DNA from: Desulfatiglandales bacterium
Lineage (GTDB): Bacteria > Desulfobacterota > DSM-4660 > Desulfatiglandales > Desulfatiglandaceae
Direction: 5' to 3'
NCBI GenBank assembly: GCA_963662465.1
Contig: OY759599.1
Span: forward strand, 288,001-352,000
Length of the DNA: 64,000 bases
Made by a program: the position numbers. Every line of letters begins with the position of its first letter. The stretch's first letter is position 1. Below, piece after piece: positions 12,001-18,000 of this stretch.

Positions 12001-15000
12001 AAATATTAGAAACAATCATGGAATTTTGCCCCTTGACGGGGTCTTTTTGGATGATCTGCACCCCCTTTCAGGTGGAAAGGCTTTGGAGAGGGTTTTAAAT
12101 CACCCGGATCCTCCCCGTTTGATCCAAAGCATGAGCAGTGAGGATTTTTTATGGCTGGTCAAAAAGGTGGGTGTGGATGAATCTCTTGAATTGCTGGAAT
12201 TGGCTTCACTGGATCAATGGCAATATATTATTGATGTGGAATCGTGGGAAAAGGACCGTCTCGACCTGAACCGCACCGACCAATGGATGATGCGGTTGAC
12301 GATGGCGGATCCCGAGCGATTGGTGGAATGGCTGTATTCCGATGGGCAGGGCCTTGCTTACTATTACCTTTATCGAAGCATCGTGGTGGAAGCGATGGAA
12401 GGAAACGACCTTTATGACGTGGGCCCCGAATTTTTTACCATTGACGGGCTTTTCTACATTCGGGCACTGCGGGAAGACCAGCGGGGAACCATTGAAAAAC
12501 TGCTGCGAACCATGGCTGATAAGGACCTCCTCAAATACCATGCCCTTCTGATGGGTATGGCGGGGGTGCTGCCGGCGGAATCTGAAGAGGACATGTACCG
12601 CATGCGAAACATTCGTCTGGCGGAACACGGGTTTCTTCCCAGGGATGAGGCCATGGTGGTTTACGCTCCTCTGAAGCCGGAGCGCTTGAAAATGGATGCG
12701 CCAAGCGCTTCTGATCAGCCGGTTCCGGATGAAGATGACCTTGACCTTGTTCCCCGTTGGCCGCTTCAGTACATTCAGGGGGAAAACCTCTTGGCCAAAA
12801 CCATTGCAAGCCTTTCGGATGCAACGCTTTTGGATCGCATTCGCCTGGAGTTCGCCGGCCTTTGCAACCAGATCGTATCCGCTGAAGGTTTGGTGGACAG
12901 GGATGTGGATGATCTTCAGGAAATTCGCCTGCAAGCGGCCGGCTACTTGAATTTAATTTTAAAGGAGCGGTGCAGTGAAGATATTGTAACCGCCGAAAAG
13001 CTGTTAAGAATGAATTCTCTGTTGTCTCTGTTTCGCGCGGGTTTTGGTTTGGCCGTGGATTTGAAATGGAAAGCGGATCGGTGGTTAAAGACCTGCTGGT
13101 TTCACGAGGCCGGTTTTGAACCGTCCTTTTGGGGAGAGGAATGGGGCGGTATCCTCGAAGGTCTTTTGAAAAGGCTGCCCCTTTTCTATTGCGGAAGCGA
13201 GTCGGAGAATGGTTTCCGGCACTTTCAATCCTTATCGGAACTGTCATCCACCGCCGCGGTTCTGCGCCATCTGGATTGTTTGGACGGCCTCATGGCACGG
13301 TTGACAAAGCAACACCCTTTGGACGCTCCGGATTCCGGGCCCTTTGATTTAACCTTTTATCCGCTGCTTTTTACCTTGTGGGCCCGGCAACTGTTAGACA
13401 TGCGTCCCGGTTTTGATGCTATCTCCCTTGATCAGGCAAGAGCGTTTTTCTGCCTCCTCAGGGAAGGGGACACATCACCTCCCTACCGCATGTTCGGTTT
13501 CGAGGAACGGTTCCTGAAGGCCTTTGAAATGCCGAATTCGGGACCTGGGGACTGCCCTTCAGAAAATCTAAGAGAGGCCCTCTCCCTGGTCTGGCGTGAC
13601 TTCAGCAATGAAATGGGACAGGTGCCGACGGATGCCGTGGATGCGAAGTACAGCAAATATATTATGATTGCACCCAGTTGACAATCTCCTGTTCCGAAAA
13701 ACAGCCGGTACGGGCTTTGCCCCAGAGCGAGAAGGTTTTTTCCGCCTGATAAGGTTTCAGGTGGGTATATCCGTCGTCCATGAATCGCTTTAAGGCGGAG
13801 ACCGGCAGGGAAGCACCTGCAACTTGAACGTTTTGGCCAACATTTTTTCCGGCAATCAGTTCTTCAATTTTCATAAAAAAACCTCCCTGTTCTAAGTTGA
13901 AAGTATTGGCATTTGCTTACCATGAAAATAGAGCCATTAGCTGTTAGCTATTAGCCGTTAGTTTAAAAGCGGTAGATGTTATTTCCATCCGCGGGGGTGG
14001 TAAAACCTTTTATCATGGGTGTTTATTCTTCAATCGCGGCATCGTTTGTTTTGGCATGTTTTTCCAGAGTGCCCGCATCGTAACCGGCTTTTTCGTAATT
14101 GTCGATAGCCCGCATTTTCAGTTGGTTGTCCTTGATTTTTTCCGAATGGGTGTCAGCCAGTTCGGCCGCATGACTCCACATCCCTTCCTTCTCATAGGAA
14201 GCGATTTTTCGGTTGATGCGCACATGCTCTTCCGAAGGCTCCATAACGGCCGATCGGCACCAGGAGATGATTTTTCTGACGCCCTGTCCGCAGGCGGGGC
14301 AGTGGGTAAGGGGGGCTTCATTGATTCCCTGGATAAATTCAAATCCTCCCCGGCACTTTTCACAGCTTCCGGCAAAATCCAACGGTTCATATTCATATAT
14401 GGGCATGGTTGCAGCTTTCTTTTAGCGATCCTAAGTTACATAAAAAAGTTCACGGTATTTCAACCGATCTCCGCCATTGCGGTCCCTCTTGTGTATCGAT
14501 GACCTCAATCCCCATTTCTTCGATTTCCTTTCTCAGAATGTCGGCTTCGGACCAGTCTTTTCGGCTTCTGGCCAGTTCCCTTTTCGAAATGAGTGCGTCC
14601 ACTTCCGGATTCGCGGCGGGGGGCTTCAGATTTATAAACCCCAGGACCGAATTGATTCGCTTAAGGGCTGCCAGCAATTTTTCCCGGTCCGAAGGGGAAA
14701 GCCCTCTTTGATCCATCTTTTTGTTGACGATGCGGGTAAACCCGAAAAGGGCGGCCAGGCCCGCAGCCATGTTGAAGTCATCGTCCATGGCCGCCGCAAA
14801 CCCTTGCTTGAGGCCATAGATCGTCTGGTCAAGGTCGGGGTCCGTGGAGGCCGGTTTCGCAAAATGTATTTTTTGAACGAATTTGTCCAGATGAGCGATG
14901 GTATTTTTAACGGCGGAAAGCTTGGTATGGGAAAAAAAGATCGGTTTTCGATAGTGACGGCTGAGCAACCAGTATCGAATTTCTCTTCCCGTGTACCCTT

Positions 15001-18000
15001 CGGCCAGAAGGTCTCTAAGGGTCAGGTGAATGCTGTTTGATGCGTTGGGGCCGTTGAACATGACCGGTTCATTGTGAAGCCAGTAATTGGAAAGGGGCTT
15101 GTCGGTTGCGGCCTGGCTAATGGCGATGGCGTTTTCATGGTGGGGGAATGCCAGTGCGACCCCGCTGGTGTGGATGTCATGGGTGGAACCGAGGGTTTTG
15201 AGGGCAATGGCCGCACATTCAAGATGCCATCCCGGTCGCACATTTCCCCACTTTGTCTTAAAAAAGAGGCCGTTTTTCAGCTCATTGAGGGTGGATCTTT
15301 TCAGCAGGGTAAAATCTTTGGGGTTTTCTTTTTCGTATTGATCCAGGTCAACGGTTTTGCCGATTCTGATTTTATTGAGATCCACGTTGGAAAGTTTTCC
15401 ATAATTTTTGAAGCGGGAGATATCAAAGTATATGGACCGCAATTTTTCATAGGCATATCCCTTTTCAAGAAGCGTTTGGGTTAGTTCAATCATATCGTCC
15501 ACATGTTCGCTGGGCCTGGGATACTGGGACGCTTTTTTGATGTTGAGACTGTTTAGGTCTTCCATAAAGGAATTGTAAAACATATCGGTAAATTCCTTAA
15601 GTGAAACACCGGCCTTTTGAGCGCCTGAAATCGTGCGGTCATCCAGGTCCGTCACATTCATGATATGGGTGACGCCGTACCCTTTATAAGTCATGTAACG
15701 GCTGATCAAATCGGAAAAAAGCAGCCGCCTGCATTGTACGAGATCAATGACCTGGCAAAGGGTCGGGCCGCAAGAGTACAGGGTGACATGATTGTCTTTG
15801 ATGGGGATGAAATCCTCTTTTTTGCGGCTCATGGTATTGTACACCCGAAGCCCTGATTTTTTTCTGGCCATGAACAGGGGCGTGCTGAGGTATCTCTCTC
15901 CTCCGTCGGGCAAAATTACGATAATGCGGCCCCGTTCCATGTTCCGGGCGACCTTCAGGGCCACTGCCATGGCGGCCCCGGAACTCATTCCCACGAAAAT
16001 GCCTTCTTTCCGGGCCAGCATCCGAGAGGTCTCAAAGGCCTCTTCGTCTTCAATATTGATGATTTGGTCGGCTCTCTTTTTTTCAAATATCCCCGGCTGA
16101 TAGGACTCCTTCATGTTTTTGAGACCCTGAATTTTATGCCCCAGATAGGGTTCCACGCCGATGATCTGAACGGAAGTATCCAACTCCTTGAACCGCCTGG
16201 AAATGCCCATGAGAGTGCCGGTGGTTCCCATGGTGGCCACAATGGCATCCAAACGCCCCTCGGTTTGTTCCCATATTTCCATGGCCGTACCGTCATAATG
16301 GGCCATCCAGTTGGCCTCATTGTTAAACTGGTCGGCCAGCCAGAATTTTTCCGGGTTCTCACGGGCCAGGTTGTACACATGTTCAATGGCGCCGTCCGTT
16401 CCCAGATGCGCCGGGGTGAATTCTATTTCCGCGCCCAGGGCCGCAAGGATCTTGATGCGCTCTTCGCTGACCGCCTCCGACATGGTCAGCAGAATCTCGT
16501 ATCCCTTGACGGCGGCTACCATGGCCAGACCGATCCCCGTATTCCCACTGGTCGCTTCAAGAATGATTTTGCCTTTCTTCAGCGCCCCCGTTTTTTCGGC
16601 TTCTTCGATCATTTTCAAGGCTGGCCGGTCTTTGATGGAACCACCCGGGTTAACGCTCTCCAGTTTGGCCAGGATTTCAACATTTTCGTTGGCGCCAAGC
16701 CGGGTTATGGAAACCAGGGGGGTCTTGCCGATTTTGTCGAGAATATTATGGTATTGATGGGGCATGATTTTTTTCGCTTTCCGTCGTCGTAAAACCATTC
16801 GGCCCGGAGGCCTGGATTGTTGATAACTTCTTGACCCTCGCTTATCGTCTTGTTAATGTGTTGCTCGGTCTTTTTGGCTTTTCATCAATTAAAAAACGGA
16901 ATATGCAATCCTACTTGCGATGACAGGAGAATTCAAAATGAAAATACTGGTTACCGGCGGGGCCGGGTTTATCGGTTCCAATGTGGTGGACGGGTACATT
17001 CGAGCCGGACACGAGGTTTTGATCCTGGATAATCTTTACACCGGAAAGCGGTCCAACGTCAACCCACAAGCGCGATTCTATGAATTTGATATTCGTTCTC
17101 CTGAAGCCGCCAGGGTCATTGAACAAGAAAAACCCGATATTTTGAATCACCATGCCGCCCAGATGAGTGTGCCGGCATCCGTTGTGGATCCCGGTTTTGA
17201 TGCGGATGTCAACATCAAGGGCTTTTTGAATCTTCTGGAGGCGTCGGTAAAATCAGGTGTCAAAAAGGTCATTTTCATCTCCTCCGGCGGCGCCATATAC
17301 GGGGAGGCGGATGAATATCCCACATCCGAGATTTATGTTCCAAAGCCGCTTTCCCCTTATGCCATCACAAAATTTTCGTCGGAACATTATCTGGCATACT
17401 ACCGGTACCAATATGGCCTTGATTATACCACCCTTCGGTATGCCAATGTCTACGGCCCCCGTCAGGTTCCCCATGGAGAGGCGGGTGTGGTGGCCATTTT
17501 CATGGACAACCTGGTGGAAGGAGCCCCATCCATGTTGAATCATTTCCCGGAAGACGACAGGGGCATGGTGCGGGATTATTGCTTTGTGGTCGACGTGGTC
17601 AGGGCCAATCTTGCGGCGTTGAACTGGGGCAGCGGCGATTTCTTCAATATTGGTACAGGGCGCGGAACCAAAACCCTTGACCTTTATGAAATAATTCTGA
17701 GTGCATTAGCGGATATGGGCAGGCCCGCGGCCAAGGAATTGTATGAAATGAAAAAACAGCTGGCTCGGCCCGGGGATTTGAAAAGAAGCTGTCTGACGAT
17801 TCAAAAGGCAGCCGATGTTTTGAATTGGCAGCCGAAGGTTCAGCTGAAGGAGGGTATTCGTGAAACCCTACAATGGCGTCTGAACCGAAGTTGACCTAGG
17901 CGCTGAGTTCCCTTTCCATAATTTGTCCTGCCATGTTTTTTGGTCCTTGCCCTTGACATTCCCGGGGTCGATATTAATTTTCTGTGCAATGAGACCTACG

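Follow-up and report, generated by a model that had tools for sequence, protein, structure and literature searches.

A cysteine synthase fused to a CysRS paralogue with an eroded ATP site, tentatively read as carrying a tRNA(Cys)-sensing module

What does a cysteinyl-tRNA synthetase (CysRS) paralogue do when it is joined to a cysteine synthase and has lost its signature motifs? The question is raised by a gene in a stretch of 64,000 nucleotides (the window; positions 288,001 to 352,000 of contig OY759599.1) from a Desulfatiglandales bacterium. A first-pass annotation had described the gene as a fusion and placed it correctly: one uninterrupted open reading frame on the minus strand encodes a 782-residue protein (P0001) in which the Pfam domains PALP, tRNA-synt_1e, DALR_2 and CysS_C follow one another (Table 1). 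The protein comprises a CysK/CysM-type PLP domain, a conserved linker of 7-10 residues and a full-length CysRS-like body. Within the linker, pLDDT values below 50 are confined to residues 307-313, and S315 (96%) and G316 (99%) are conserved across the fused set and differ from the canonical CysRS residues. Met12 (codon 16763-16765) is the likelier start, giving 771 residues; that is also the length of the nearest homologue, P0002 (95% identity), homologue alignments begin at residues 7-18, residues 1-13 have pLDDT below 50 in the predicted structure, and a weak GGAAAG lies 11 nt 5' of Met12, while inspection of the upstream sequence revealed no Shine-Dalgarno-like site 5' of Met1. Annotation pipelines label the protein cysteine--tRNA ligase because its score against NCBIfam cysS (TIGR00435), 377.6 bits, exceeds the cut-off of 340; this name, that of an ordinary tRNA ligase, is wrong. 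Further literature searches, like those of the first pass, found no description of the fused protein, and a 2022 review, in its accessible part, names CysRS* and MshC as the sole paralogues of CysRS.

Table 1. Features of the fused gene and its downstream neighbours (window positions).
Feature	Position	Strand	Basis
Whole fused ORF	14450..16798	-	782 aa; range includes stop codon
CysK/CysM-type PLP domain (residues 20-298)	15905..16741	-	Pfam PALP, E 3.3e-72
Lys56 in GGSIKDR	16631..16633	-	Invariant in 42/42 diverse fused proteins
Asn loop T83-S84-G85-N86-T87-G88	16535..16552	-	All six invariant in 42/42
Short, conserved, basic linker (residues 307-316, ARKKSG)	15851..15880	-	pLDDT and conservation
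CysRS-like class-I body (residues 331-631), ATP site eroded	14906..15808	-	Pfam tRNA-synt_1e, E 3.6e-83
C343-G-P-T-L-C348-Q-V-I-D352-L-V-Q355-C356 (C28 equivalent, former HIGH, two fused-specific Cys)	15731..15772	-	Alignment to 1li5
Former KIIK, R388-T-I-S391	15626..15637	-	Alignment to 1li5/8qhp
W524-H-L-E-C528 (W205 and zinc ligand C209 equivalents), kept	15215..15229	-	Each 119/119
H553-H-E-N-A557 (H234 kept, E238 to Ala)	15128..15142	-	H553 119/119
Former KMSKS loop N585-A-S-N-S589	15032..15046	-	Alignment; 0/119 match KM[SA][KR]S
Helical DALR_2 domain (residues 667-722)	14633..14800	-	Pfam, E 1e-11; 2/2 canonical-invariant columns kept
Anticodon-binding CysS_C domain (residues 729-776; R744, W749, D753, R756)	14471..14614	-	Pfam, E 5.1e-08
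FmdB-type zinc-ribbon protein, 127 aa	14023..14406	-	Pfam Zn_ribbon_8, E 3.7e-12; TIGR02605
70-aa conserved ORF, no known family, next after FmdB-type gene	13662..13874	-	GGGAGG before ATG

The PLP domain scores 367.6 bits against NCBIfam cysKM (TIGR01136; cut-off 344.15) and 366.4 bits against the cysM equivalog, below that model's cut-off of 394.2. The match to solved CysM noted in the first pass recurs here: residues 21-310 align with residues 6-293 of the 303-residue 2jc3 chain (E 1.2e-74), and Foldseek places the predicted domain on 2jc3_A with a target-normalised TM of 0.96, an rmsd of 1.7 Å and 45% identity. The PLP-lysine and Asn-loop motifs are present as claimed; none of the 42 diverse fused proteins departs from K56, the TSGNTG loop, the GT.GT loop or S272. 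From the O-acetylserine sulfhydrylase literature, Lys56 is presumably the Schiff-base lysine and TSGNTG the substrate-binding Asn loop, which grips a free alpha-carboxylate in the solved enzymes. The window's own genome also holds the free cysteine synthase reported earlier (L007:1309-2379; cysK 362.9 bits, cut-off 350.95). The order includes 72 near-complete genomes (at least 95% complete), 68 of which carry the fused gene, and 24 of these 68 carriers lack any other CysK/M-type gene (cysKM-family matches at E<=1e-60). Because its motifs are invariant and it supplies the sole such match in those 24 genomes, the PLP domain looks both active and needed.

Aligning the CysRS-like body with E. coli CysRS (1li5) and with 8qhp gave the residue equivalences, and conservation was scored over 119 full-length fused homologues, 69-95% identical to the window protein. 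The predicted structure (mean pLDDT 86.1, pTM 0.66) indicates that the CysRS fold is retained, with target-normalised TM values for the body of 0.89 to 8qhp_A, 0.88 to 1li5_A and 0.80 to 1u0b_B, the CysRS chain of a tRNA complex; inter-domain geometry is predicted without confidence at this pTM, and so the model makes no allosteric route visible. At the ATP site, DLVQ (352-355) stands at the HIGH position, NASNS (585-589) at KMSKS and RTIS at KIIK, with both HIGH histidines and both KMSKS lysines replaced. The K73 equivalent is Arg in 117 of the 119 homologues and Lys in none, and the loop spanning residues 576-594 contains neither Lys nor Arg and falls below pLDDT 50 at 584-589. The equivalents of the HGGG glycine, D229, E238 and Q241 are changed as well. 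Among 62 canonical-invariant columns of the catalytic body, 43 are kept; the other 19, of which 13 have been replaced outright, fall below 90% retention and are concentrated around the ATP and zinc site. With HIGH, KMSKS, the HGGG glycine and D229 each altered, and the changes clustered at the ATP site, the fused protein should be a CysRS paralogue that does not make Cys-AMP, as the first-pass annotation had argued in calling it a pseudo-synthetase. Its statement that neither motif survives in any of the 119 proteins holds for KM[SA][KR]S (0/119), whereas two homologues read HLGH, 38 retain an H.G. relic and 36 a K..[KR] in the loop; motif loss is graded, not absolute.

The zinc site has been remodelled in part. 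CysRS zinc ligands include C28, C209, H234 and E238, according to the accessible part of PMC7563103, and three of these four are kept, as C343, C528 and H553. The fourth, which is Glu in 75 of 75 canonical CysRS, is A557 in the window protein; its column among the fused homologues holds Ala (92), Ser (16), Thr (6) or Val (5) and Glu in 0/119. The claim that the zinc/cysteine-pocket residues are kept is thus right for three ligands and wrong for E238, and the intact pocket that underlay the earlier reading falls with it; cysteine binding at zinc may be altered or lost because E238 is gone. C343 is found in 119, C348 in 118 and C356 in 115 of the 119 homologues, and the last two, which are Cys in 0/75 canonical CysRS, are fixed exactly at the former HIGH site. 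In all, 42 positions carry residues that are conserved at 95% or more among the fused homologues and rare in canonical CysRS, 11 of them gained Lys or Arg. The catalytic part carries a net charge of +4.9 in the fused protein and -3.4 in canonical CysRS, a weak argument because canonical values spread widely (sd 13.4). Of the 315 core columns, 140 are at least 95% conserved in the window's clade, and dN/dS over eight pairs is 0.047-0.101 for the core versus 0.049-0.125 for the PLP domain. Purifying selection acts on the dead core as strongly as on the PLP domain.

The anticodon-binding domain, described as kept in the first pass, is indeed so, with six of six canonical-invariant CysS_C columns retained. 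Residues R427, W432, D436 and R439, given as anticodon-reading in E. coli CysRS in the accessible part of PMC13449415, have their equivalents in all 119 fused homologues, and R740, D753, R756 and D768 are invariant in 42/42 diverse fused proteins, including the most degenerate members, which lack the zinc cysteines.

The gene is widely conserved in the Desulfobacterota, as had been proposed: it occurs in 187 of the order's 209 genomes and, across the phylum, in 120 of 301 sampled. A canonical CysRS with CHIGHAR and KMSKS, the presence of which had also been noted, is encoded in the same genome (L001:1456-2910, 484 aa), and canonical CysRS is found in 5/5 other carrier genomes tested and in 66/68 near-complete carriers. 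The lineages differ in what their bodies have lost, a mosaic erosion: a Syntrophales member retains both HIGS and KMSRS and has Val at E238, Desulfocapsaceae members have lost HIGH and kept E238, the Desulfovibrio ferrophilus group has lost C28 and C209, and C348 is absent from more distant fused relatives. The only residues universal to the family are the anticodon residues, W205 and H234. Some members may still aminoacylate, since two of the 119 read HLGH and the distant relatives P0122, P0125 and L053 carry both motifs. Within this phylum the family goes back to one ancient fusion whose halves evolved in parallel; in the degenerate lineages, branch lengths are 0.24-0.34 for PLP domains and 0.71-1.33 for bodies. 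An independent fusion, to a canonical CysRS, occurs in a Nanoarchaeota MAG.

The reading that we favour, tentatively and at somewhat under an even chance, is an active cysteine synthase carrying a non-catalytic module that senses tRNA(Cys) and cysteine. The PLP domain would make cysteine from free O-acetylserine and sulfide; the body would no longer activate cysteine with ATP and would act as a non-catalytic reader of tRNA(Cys), probably also reading, at the remodelled zinc site, either cysteine or the cysteinyl terminus of a charged tRNA, and cysteine synthesis would thereby be coupled to the state of tRNA(Cys). That the protein binds tRNA(Cys) at all, and that binding alters cysteine-synthase activity, in whichever direction, we infer from sequence. 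The logic resembles that of HisZ acting on HisG, and may be likened to that of the HisRS-like domain carried by GCN2 and of T-box control of cysteine genes. Since the most degenerate lineages have dropped the zinc cysteines, cysteine sensing cannot be the function of the whole family. Moreover, sensing alone would not require the former active-site core to stay at a dN/dS of about 0.05, nor C348 and C356 to become fixed at the former HIGH; core constraint and new cysteines could reflect new chemistry.

A regulatory sensing domain, the fallback of the first-pass annotation, is better supported than the two activities it had put forward, a tRNA-bound beta-replacement and a persulfide hand-off. 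Against a SepCysS-like beta-replacement, a profile search found no SepRS (best TIGR00470 match 19.8 bits, cut-off 380.65), and the Asn loop, which binds a free carboxylate in solved O-acetylserine sulfhydrylases, is invariant in 42/42. The persulfide role of E. coli CysRS requires K73, K76, K266 and K269 (PMC5660078, accessible part), and the equivalents of all four are residues other than Lys in the window protein.

The sensed ligand might instead be free cysteine only, bound at the zinc site of a HisZ-like feedback domain whose effect on the PLP domain is inhibition or activation, with tRNA-binding parts that are leftover; this is unlikely, though the most plausible of the alternatives. HisZ is not known to have an anticodon-binding domain, whereas the fused protein keeps one, and the conservation of anticodon-base-reading surface residues in 119/119 is unexplained by leftover parts. 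C343, C528, H553, W524, T383 and G344 are each present in 119/119 in the order-level clade, which favours this reading, but E238 is lost in 119/119, and degenerate lineages without C28 and C209 retain the body and its anticodon residues. HisZ is itself a precedent for a synthetase paralogue that mediates end-product inhibition (PMC9734150, accessible part). We assign a smaller chance again to tRNA-linked catalysis, in which the body would hold tRNA(Cys) or Cys-tRNA(Cys) while the remodelled Cys-rich site, with or without help from the PLP domain, works on the aminoacyl group at the 3' end; it might form or remove a persulfide, correct a mischarged residue, or draw on Cys-tRNA as a cysteinyl donor. 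The absence of SepRS, the loss of every lysine described for CysRS persulfide-synthase activity, the persistence of the architecture in lineages without zinc cysteines, and an invariant free-carboxylate Asn loop, which makes an esterified substrate at the PLP site less likely, all weigh on it; in its favour are the PLP-like constraint on the former catalytic core, C348 and C356 at the former HIGH among 42 fused-specific positions, the kept anticodon readers and the short, conserved linker. Cyclodipeptide synthases, with a probable class-I synthetase-like precursor and aminoacylated tRNAs as substrates (PMC2922099, accessible part), offer a parallel.

Less probable still is a body that is scaffold only, serving stability, oligomerisation or localisation (for example near the translation machinery) without ligand-dependent control: the degenerate lineages, with short PLP and long body branches, suggest that much of the active site is dispensable, but 140 of 315 core columns conserved at a dN/dS of about 0.05-0.10 in the window's clade, and anticodon-reading side chains invariant family-wide, argue against it. 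There is a slim chance that the body is a sulfur relay or carrier, taking up or handing over sulfur for the fused PLP domain, with C343, C348, C356, C528 and H553 making up a new metal or persulfide site. Two cysteines were gained beside three kept zinc ligands as Glu238 was lost, and database records give the hosts as sulfide-rich anaerobes; against this, the proposal derives from a sequence pattern alone, C348 is missing in more distant fused relatives, and CysK/M enzymes take free sulfide or thiosulfate as their sulfur source. That the protein is still a CysRS, a second and unusual one that charges tRNA(Cys) by substrate channelling with cysteine from the adjoining domain, is the least probable account: the cysS score above cut-off, the fused relatives with intact motifs and the two HLGH homologues would fit it, but the HIGH histidines, KMSKS lysines, HGGG glycine, D229 and E238 are all replaced in the window protein, and a canonical CysRS is nearly always present alongside.

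Downstream, the FmdB-type gene named as a neighbour in the first pass does adjoin the fused gene, 43 bases away on the same strand; no terminator-like site was found on the gene strand in this gap, and the two are probably co-transcribed. Its product has a conserved C-terminal four-helix part. The neighbourhood is limited to close loci: among 39 full-length fused loci, 16 have FmdB directly downstream, and these all show at least 69% identity to the window protein; at more distant loci it is missing from that place, making it a clade-limited neighbour and a candidate partner at most. The 70-aa ORF that follows is conserved: 11 loci encode relatives, with E values no higher than 3e-26.

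The window's fused gene is a single uninterrupted frame whose product joins a cysteine synthase-type PLP domain to a complete CysRS-like body; its domains and neighbors are collected in the table. The protein is called a ligase because its score against NCBIfam TIGR00435 (cysteine--tRNA ligase), 377.6 bits, exceeds the curated cut-off of 340. It also passes the cysKM subfamily model TIGR01136 (367.6 bits against 344.15), falls far below the cut-off for MshC (TIGR03447, 157.5 bits against 485.1), and misses those of both the cysK equivalog and the CysM equivalog TIGR01138 (366.4 bits against 394.2 for the latter). 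The label 'CysM-type' therefore denotes a protein that lies nearest to CysM, rather than a member by the curated rule. From the sequence, translation probably starts at Met12, since a 95%-identical homologue is 771 amino acids long, alignments with homologues start somewhere between residues 7 and 18, and this codon has a weak GGAAAG in front of it.

Coordinates of the fused gene, its domains and its neighbors in the window
Feature	Position	Strand	Remarks
Fused gene	14450-16798	-	single open frame, 782 codons
PALP	residues 20-298	-	Pfam, E 3.3e-72
tRNA-synt_1e	residues 331-631	-	Pfam, E 3.6e-83
DALR_2	residues 667-722	-	Pfam
CysS_C	residues 729-776	-	Pfam
FmdB-type zinc-ribbon gene	14023-14406	-	43 bases downstream of fused gene, same strand
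Conserved 70-codon ORF	13662-13874	-	next after FmdB gene
DUF6178 gene	11972-13681	+	E 6.6e-146; convergent with operon; synteny kept in 16 related loci
NAD-dependent epimerase gene	16920-17894	+	divergent from fused gene; synteny kept in 23 related loci
IS4-family DDE transposase gene	10355-11773	+	just outside conserved block; G+C 0.39-0.40, about 0.50 nearby

Both halves find close structural counterparts. In sequence searches of the PDB, residues 314-778 match the CysRS entry 8qhp (1.5e-90) and E. coli CysRS 1li5 (2.6e-78), and residues 21-310 match CysM 2jc3 (1.2e-74). An AlphaFold2 model built on an alignment of 42 family members has a mean pLDDT of 86.1 and a pTM of 0.66, with low confidence confined to residues 1-13, the linker (307-313), a loop of the CP domain (476-494), the former KMSKS loop (584-589) and residues 780-782. 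Compared by Foldseek, the model gives target-normalized TM scores of 0.80-0.89 against CysRS structures, including the tRNA complex 1u0b, and of 0.96 against CysM 2jc3, at 45% identity. Like canonical CysRS (E. coli CysS; 1LI5, 1LI7 and 1U0B; 8QHP), the fused body is full-length and has the same order of domains, namely a Rossmann core, an inserted CP domain, the stem-contact fold, a helical bundle and the anticodon domain; unlike stand-alone CysM/CysK enzymes (Salmonella CysM, 2JC3), the fused protein bears this 470-residue body at its C-terminus.

Alignment of the fused protein to 1li5 and 8qhp (E. coli CysRS numbering) shows that the body, in addition to being joined to a PLP enzyme, differs from canonical CysRS throughout the ATP site. 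HIGH (37-40), KMSKS (266-270) and KIIK (73-76) are lost, being replaced by DLVQ (352-355), NASNS (585-589, in a loop spanning 576-594 that contains no Lys or Arg) and RTIS (388-391), respectively. The HGGG element, with loss of a glycine, reads HTSG, D229 is A548, Q241 is I560, and E238 is lost as A557. C28, T68, W205, C209 and H234 are kept as C343, T383, W524, C528 and H553. CHIGHAR and KMSKS are both found in the canonical CysRS that the same genome encodes (L001:1456-2910). Across 70 reference columns, each at least 90% conserved among 75 canonical CysRS representatives, a set of 119 full-length fused homologues (69-95% identical) retains 43 of 62 in the catalytic part and every one in the helical (2 of 2) and anticodon (6 of 6) domains, and the altered columns are the ATP-site elements together with E238 and Q241.

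The first-pass annotation had described both class-I motifs as absent from all 119 fused proteins that it compared. For KMSKS this stands in the strict sense, as KM[SA][KR]S occurs in 0/119 fused proteins and the KMSKS loop in all 75 canonical ones, but the loss is better described as graded. The HIGH pattern H-[ILVM]-G-[HN], found in 75/75 canonical CysRS, persists in two fused homologues (both HLGH); an H.G. relic, mostly HLGQ, is visible in 38 of the 119, and 36 still carry K..[KR] in the former KMSKS loop (for example, GKKPS). Few homologues are more eroded than the window's protein. The companion claim, that the zinc and cysteine pocket is kept, likewise holds only in part. According to a passage of PMC7563103, the zinc ligands of CysRS are C28, C209, H234 and E238; equivalents of the first three are each present in 119/119 fused proteins, but the fourth, which is Glu in 75/75 canonical enzymes, is Glu in none (A 92, S 16, T 6, V 5).

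The anticodon-reading surface, by comparison with these canonical residues, is intact. According to passages of a 2026 engineering paper, R427 of E. coli CysRS hydrogen-bonds G34, and R427, W432, D436 and R439 were mutated to redirect anticodon recognition (PMC13449415). These four residues correspond to R744, W749, D753 and R756, each found in 119/119 fused homologues, and R740, D753, R756, D768, W524 and H553 are invariant even across 42 far more diverse fused proteins.

In the PLP half, all 42 diverse fused proteins share K56, the T83-G88 loop, S272 and the GT.GT loop at 191-195 (G191/T192/G194/T195) without exception; following the O-acetylserine sulfhydrylase literature, we take these to be the PLP lysine, the Asn loop, the glycine-rich phosphate loop and the corresponding conserved serine. 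Besides the fused gene, the genome encodes a free CysK and a CysE-like protein that scores 163 bits, below its cut-off of 210.65. When cysKM-family matches (E<=1e-60) were tallied by hand in the 72 genomes of the order with a completeness of 95% or more, the fused gene proved to be the sole match in 24 (24 of the 68 near-complete carriers); two or more matches occur in 45, free CysK only in one, and no match in two.

The body has also acquired features of its own. At 42 positions the fused set is at least 95% conserved for residues that are rare in canonical CysRS, among them C348 (118/119) and C356 (115/119), which flank the former HIGH and are Cys in none of the 75 canonical sequences. A small conserved insertion is present at 507-510, and 11 Lys or Arg have been gained; in the catalytic part the net charge averages +4.9, against -3.4 in canonical CysRS, for which values scatter widely. 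Nei-Gojobori dN/dS estimates from eight pairs of loci are 0.049-0.125 for the PLP domain, 0.047-0.101 for the dead catalytic core and 0.079-0.185 for the helical and anticodon part. These low values indicate that the CysRS-like body is not decaying.

Of 209 genomes in the order, 187 carry the fused gene (89/93 of the high-quality ones), as do 120 of 301 genomes sampled across the phylum at 90% completeness or better (about 40%), with a nearly all-or-none distribution by family. Going by record titles, carriers include Desulfatiglandales, Desulfobacteraceae, strain NaphS2, Desulfocapsa, Desulfopila, Syntrophales and Desulfovibrio ferrophilus. A canonical CysRS accompanies it in 66 of the 68 near-complete carriers of the order, the other two being a genome with a partial CysRS copy and a fragmented genome in which none was found; a separate canonical enzyme was also present in 5/5 other carriers tested. 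The window's own genome has one tRNA-Cys(GCA) and one tRNA-Sec. G102, a genome of the same family (one contig, 96% complete), yielded no PF01406 match at E<=1e-60, canonical or fused; Cys-tRNA may be made there by a different route. Eight of the 72 near-complete genomes (G181, G048, G195, G193, G137, G161, G067 and G160), and the Syntrophales genome (G001:C1:3596829-3597734), have a third CysRS-like gene, which is shorter (open frames of 418-453 amino acids, 233-258 bits) and may correspond to the CysRS* known from Desulfobacterales.

Distant relatives, gathered by a search of 1.84 billion representatives and then examined through a motif table and fetched loci, display motif erosion as a mosaic. 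The homologue P0122 has HLGN and KMSRS and keeps E238, and a Syntrophales locus (L053) has HIGS and KMSRS with Val at E238; Desulfocapsaceae proteins have lost HIGH, read KMSKD or KMSAE, and keep E238, and the D. ferrophilus group (P0126, P0128, P0130) has lost HIGH, KMSKS and also C28 and C209. In quick maximum-likelihood trees, computed without bootstrap and with the long branches of the degenerate group flagged, canonical CysRS forms one clade (starred support, 99) that takes in the own-genome CysRS and the CysRS part of P0125 and leaves the Desulfobacterota fused bodies outside. The PLP tree places all Desulfobacterota fusions in one clade (98, starred) whose sub-clades mirror the body tree, again with P0125 outside. 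We read these sequence trees as pointing to one ancient fusion in Desulfobacterota and an independent one in an archaeon. P0125 itself, from a Nanoarchaeota MAG, is a 768-residue fusion of a cysteine synthase with a CysRS that has canonical HIGN and KMSKS. A stand-alone CysRS-like cluster (P0140; 468 residues, 58 members) with HIGL and KMSRS groups with the fused bodies and not with canonical CysRS; judged by sequence, its members may be unfused relatives of the family.

Despite its annotation, the fused protein is almost certainly not an ordinary cysteine--tRNA ligase; it belongs instead to the pseudo-synthetase kind. We propose that the PLP domain would make cysteine from free substrate, and that the CysRS-like body, whose residues predict that it cannot form Cys-AMP, would serve as a reader of tRNA(Cys), possibly also of cysteine or of the cysteinyl end of charged tRNA, and would so couple cysteine synthesis to tRNA(Cys) status. 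The body is read in this way because the anticodon-reading surface is the sole body property preserved in every lineage; the window's clade additionally preserves three zinc ligands, W205 and T68. We infer both that the body binds tRNA and that binding affects activity, and we advance the coupling tentatively, with nearly as much confidence as doubt. A simple sensor does not explain the constraint on the former active site or the two fixed new cysteines, and C348 and C356 together with that constraint therefore keep a catalytic or sulfur-relay reading alive, although we judge the two, even when taken together, to be unlikely. According to passages of PMC5660078, the persulfide-synthase activity of E. 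coli CysRS (Akaike 2017) needs K73, K76, K266 and K269, none of which has a Lys equivalent in the fused protein (R388, S391 and the NASNS loop). One form of the catalytic reading, which we consider improbable, would make the body a new enzyme that docks tRNA(Cys) by its anticodon and brings the 3' end of the tRNA to a remade metal site rich in cysteine (putatively C343, C348, C356, C528 and H553), where a tRNA-bound residue would be made, corrected or sulfur-modified without ATP, with or without the PLP domain.

The first-pass annotation had offered, as one option, a role like that of SepCysS, and the fused protein does resemble the SepRS/SepCysS route in linking a PLP enzyme to tRNA(Cys). We reject this reading, as no SepRS was found in the genome (the best TIGR00470 match scores 19.8 bits against 380.65) and the CysM domain keeps its free-carboxylate loop; the PLP fold type of SepCysS also differs from that of CysM. 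In logic, the fused protein comes closest to HisZ acting with HisG (the short-form ATP phosphoribosyltransferase) and to the HisRS-like domain of GCN2. That domain is catalytically dead, is fused to an enzyme, and binds uncharged tRNA to switch that enzyme; GCN2 is a eukaryotic kinase, and binds many tRNAs, not one isoacceptor family. HisZ, which we take to lack an anticodon-binding domain, is a class II protein (a HisRS paralogue) that acts as a separate subunit on the first enzyme of its pathway, whereas the body described here is class I, is fused, retains its anticodon domain and sits on the last pathway enzyme. In both systems a synthetase paralogue that lacks catalytic motifs is teamed with an enzyme from the pathway of the cognate amino acid; the likeness is one of logic and not of homology. 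According to the abstract of PMC9734150, HisZ is an aaRS paralogue that does not aminoacylate but regulates an enzyme in the pathway of the corresponding amino acid.

Among relatives by descent, passages of a 2022 review of aaRS paralogues list only CysRS* and MshC as paralogues of CysRS (PMC9437257). As those passages describe them, MshC is an ATP-dependent cysteine ligase that works without tRNA, and CysRS*, found in Desulfobacterales together with SelC*/SelB*, has no anticodon-binding domain and charges a SelC-like tRNA (PMC9437257). The fused body likewise derives from CysRS, but it is the reverse of both, having no ATP motifs and retaining an anticodon domain (DALR_2 and CysS_C). A full-text literature search, with subscription journals and supplements outside its coverage, returned no description of a CysM-CysRS fusion, and the passages of PMC2922099 and PMC9774590 that it brought up do not deal with one. 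The fusion is genuine and widespread, carries a wrong annotation and, as far as this search reaches, has no published description.

Reconstructions of metabolism or translation that count the fused gene as a CysRS, or that miss the sole cysteine synthase of the 24 carriers, are wrong. If the proposed coupling is true, a bacterial biosynthetic enzyme would be permanently joined to a module that reads the tRNA for the amino acid it makes, a logic akin to that of T-box RNAs and GCN2 and built from a class-I synthetase. Should the new-enzyme reading prove true instead, the protein would be the first example both of a fold-type-II PLP enzyme and of an ATP-independent descendant of CysRS acting on a tRNA-bound substrate. 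Relatives that range from motif-intact to fully eroded offer a natural record of the passage from synthetase to pseudo-synthetase.

In the surroundings of the gene, an Rfam scan of window positions 9000-22000 (E<=1) gave only two chance-level hits, far under gathering scores, and a promoter and terminator scan gave counts near the shuffled expectation. RNA data come from a single run with a small share of sampled words (0.05); seven of the contigs assembled from this metatranscriptome match within 14541-16375 at 86-98% similarity, but they derive from relatives, may reflect DNA carry-over and carry no expression levels. Among 39 full-length fused loci, 16 have the FmdB gene immediately downstream, and each of these 16 encodes a protein at least 69% identical to the window's. 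At distant fused loci the downstream genes are Memo-like, NPCBM_assoc, DUF3135 or of no family, and no common partner emerged there. A complex prediction for the fused and FmdB proteins scored 0.00, and gave no answer either way.

The FmdB protein has 52 of 127 positions invariant in 14 sequences, and its C-terminal part of about 70 residues is highly conserved (YEKEGMWSHAAELADTHSEK...TLEKHAK). Its model (pLDDT 80.2) predicts a zinc ribbon followed by four helices in this C-terminal part, and a Foldseek comparison with the PDB returned no match at E<=0.001. On a related MAG contig (L018:3135-5648), the fused frame continues into the FmdB reading frame to give 837 amino acids, which is either a true three-part fusion or an assembly error. 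The 70-codon ORF beyond the FmdB gene has a good ribosome-binding site and is given no family by Pfam or NCBIfam; with matches of E 3e-26 or better, relatives of it lie between the FmdB and DUF6178 genes at 11 related loci.
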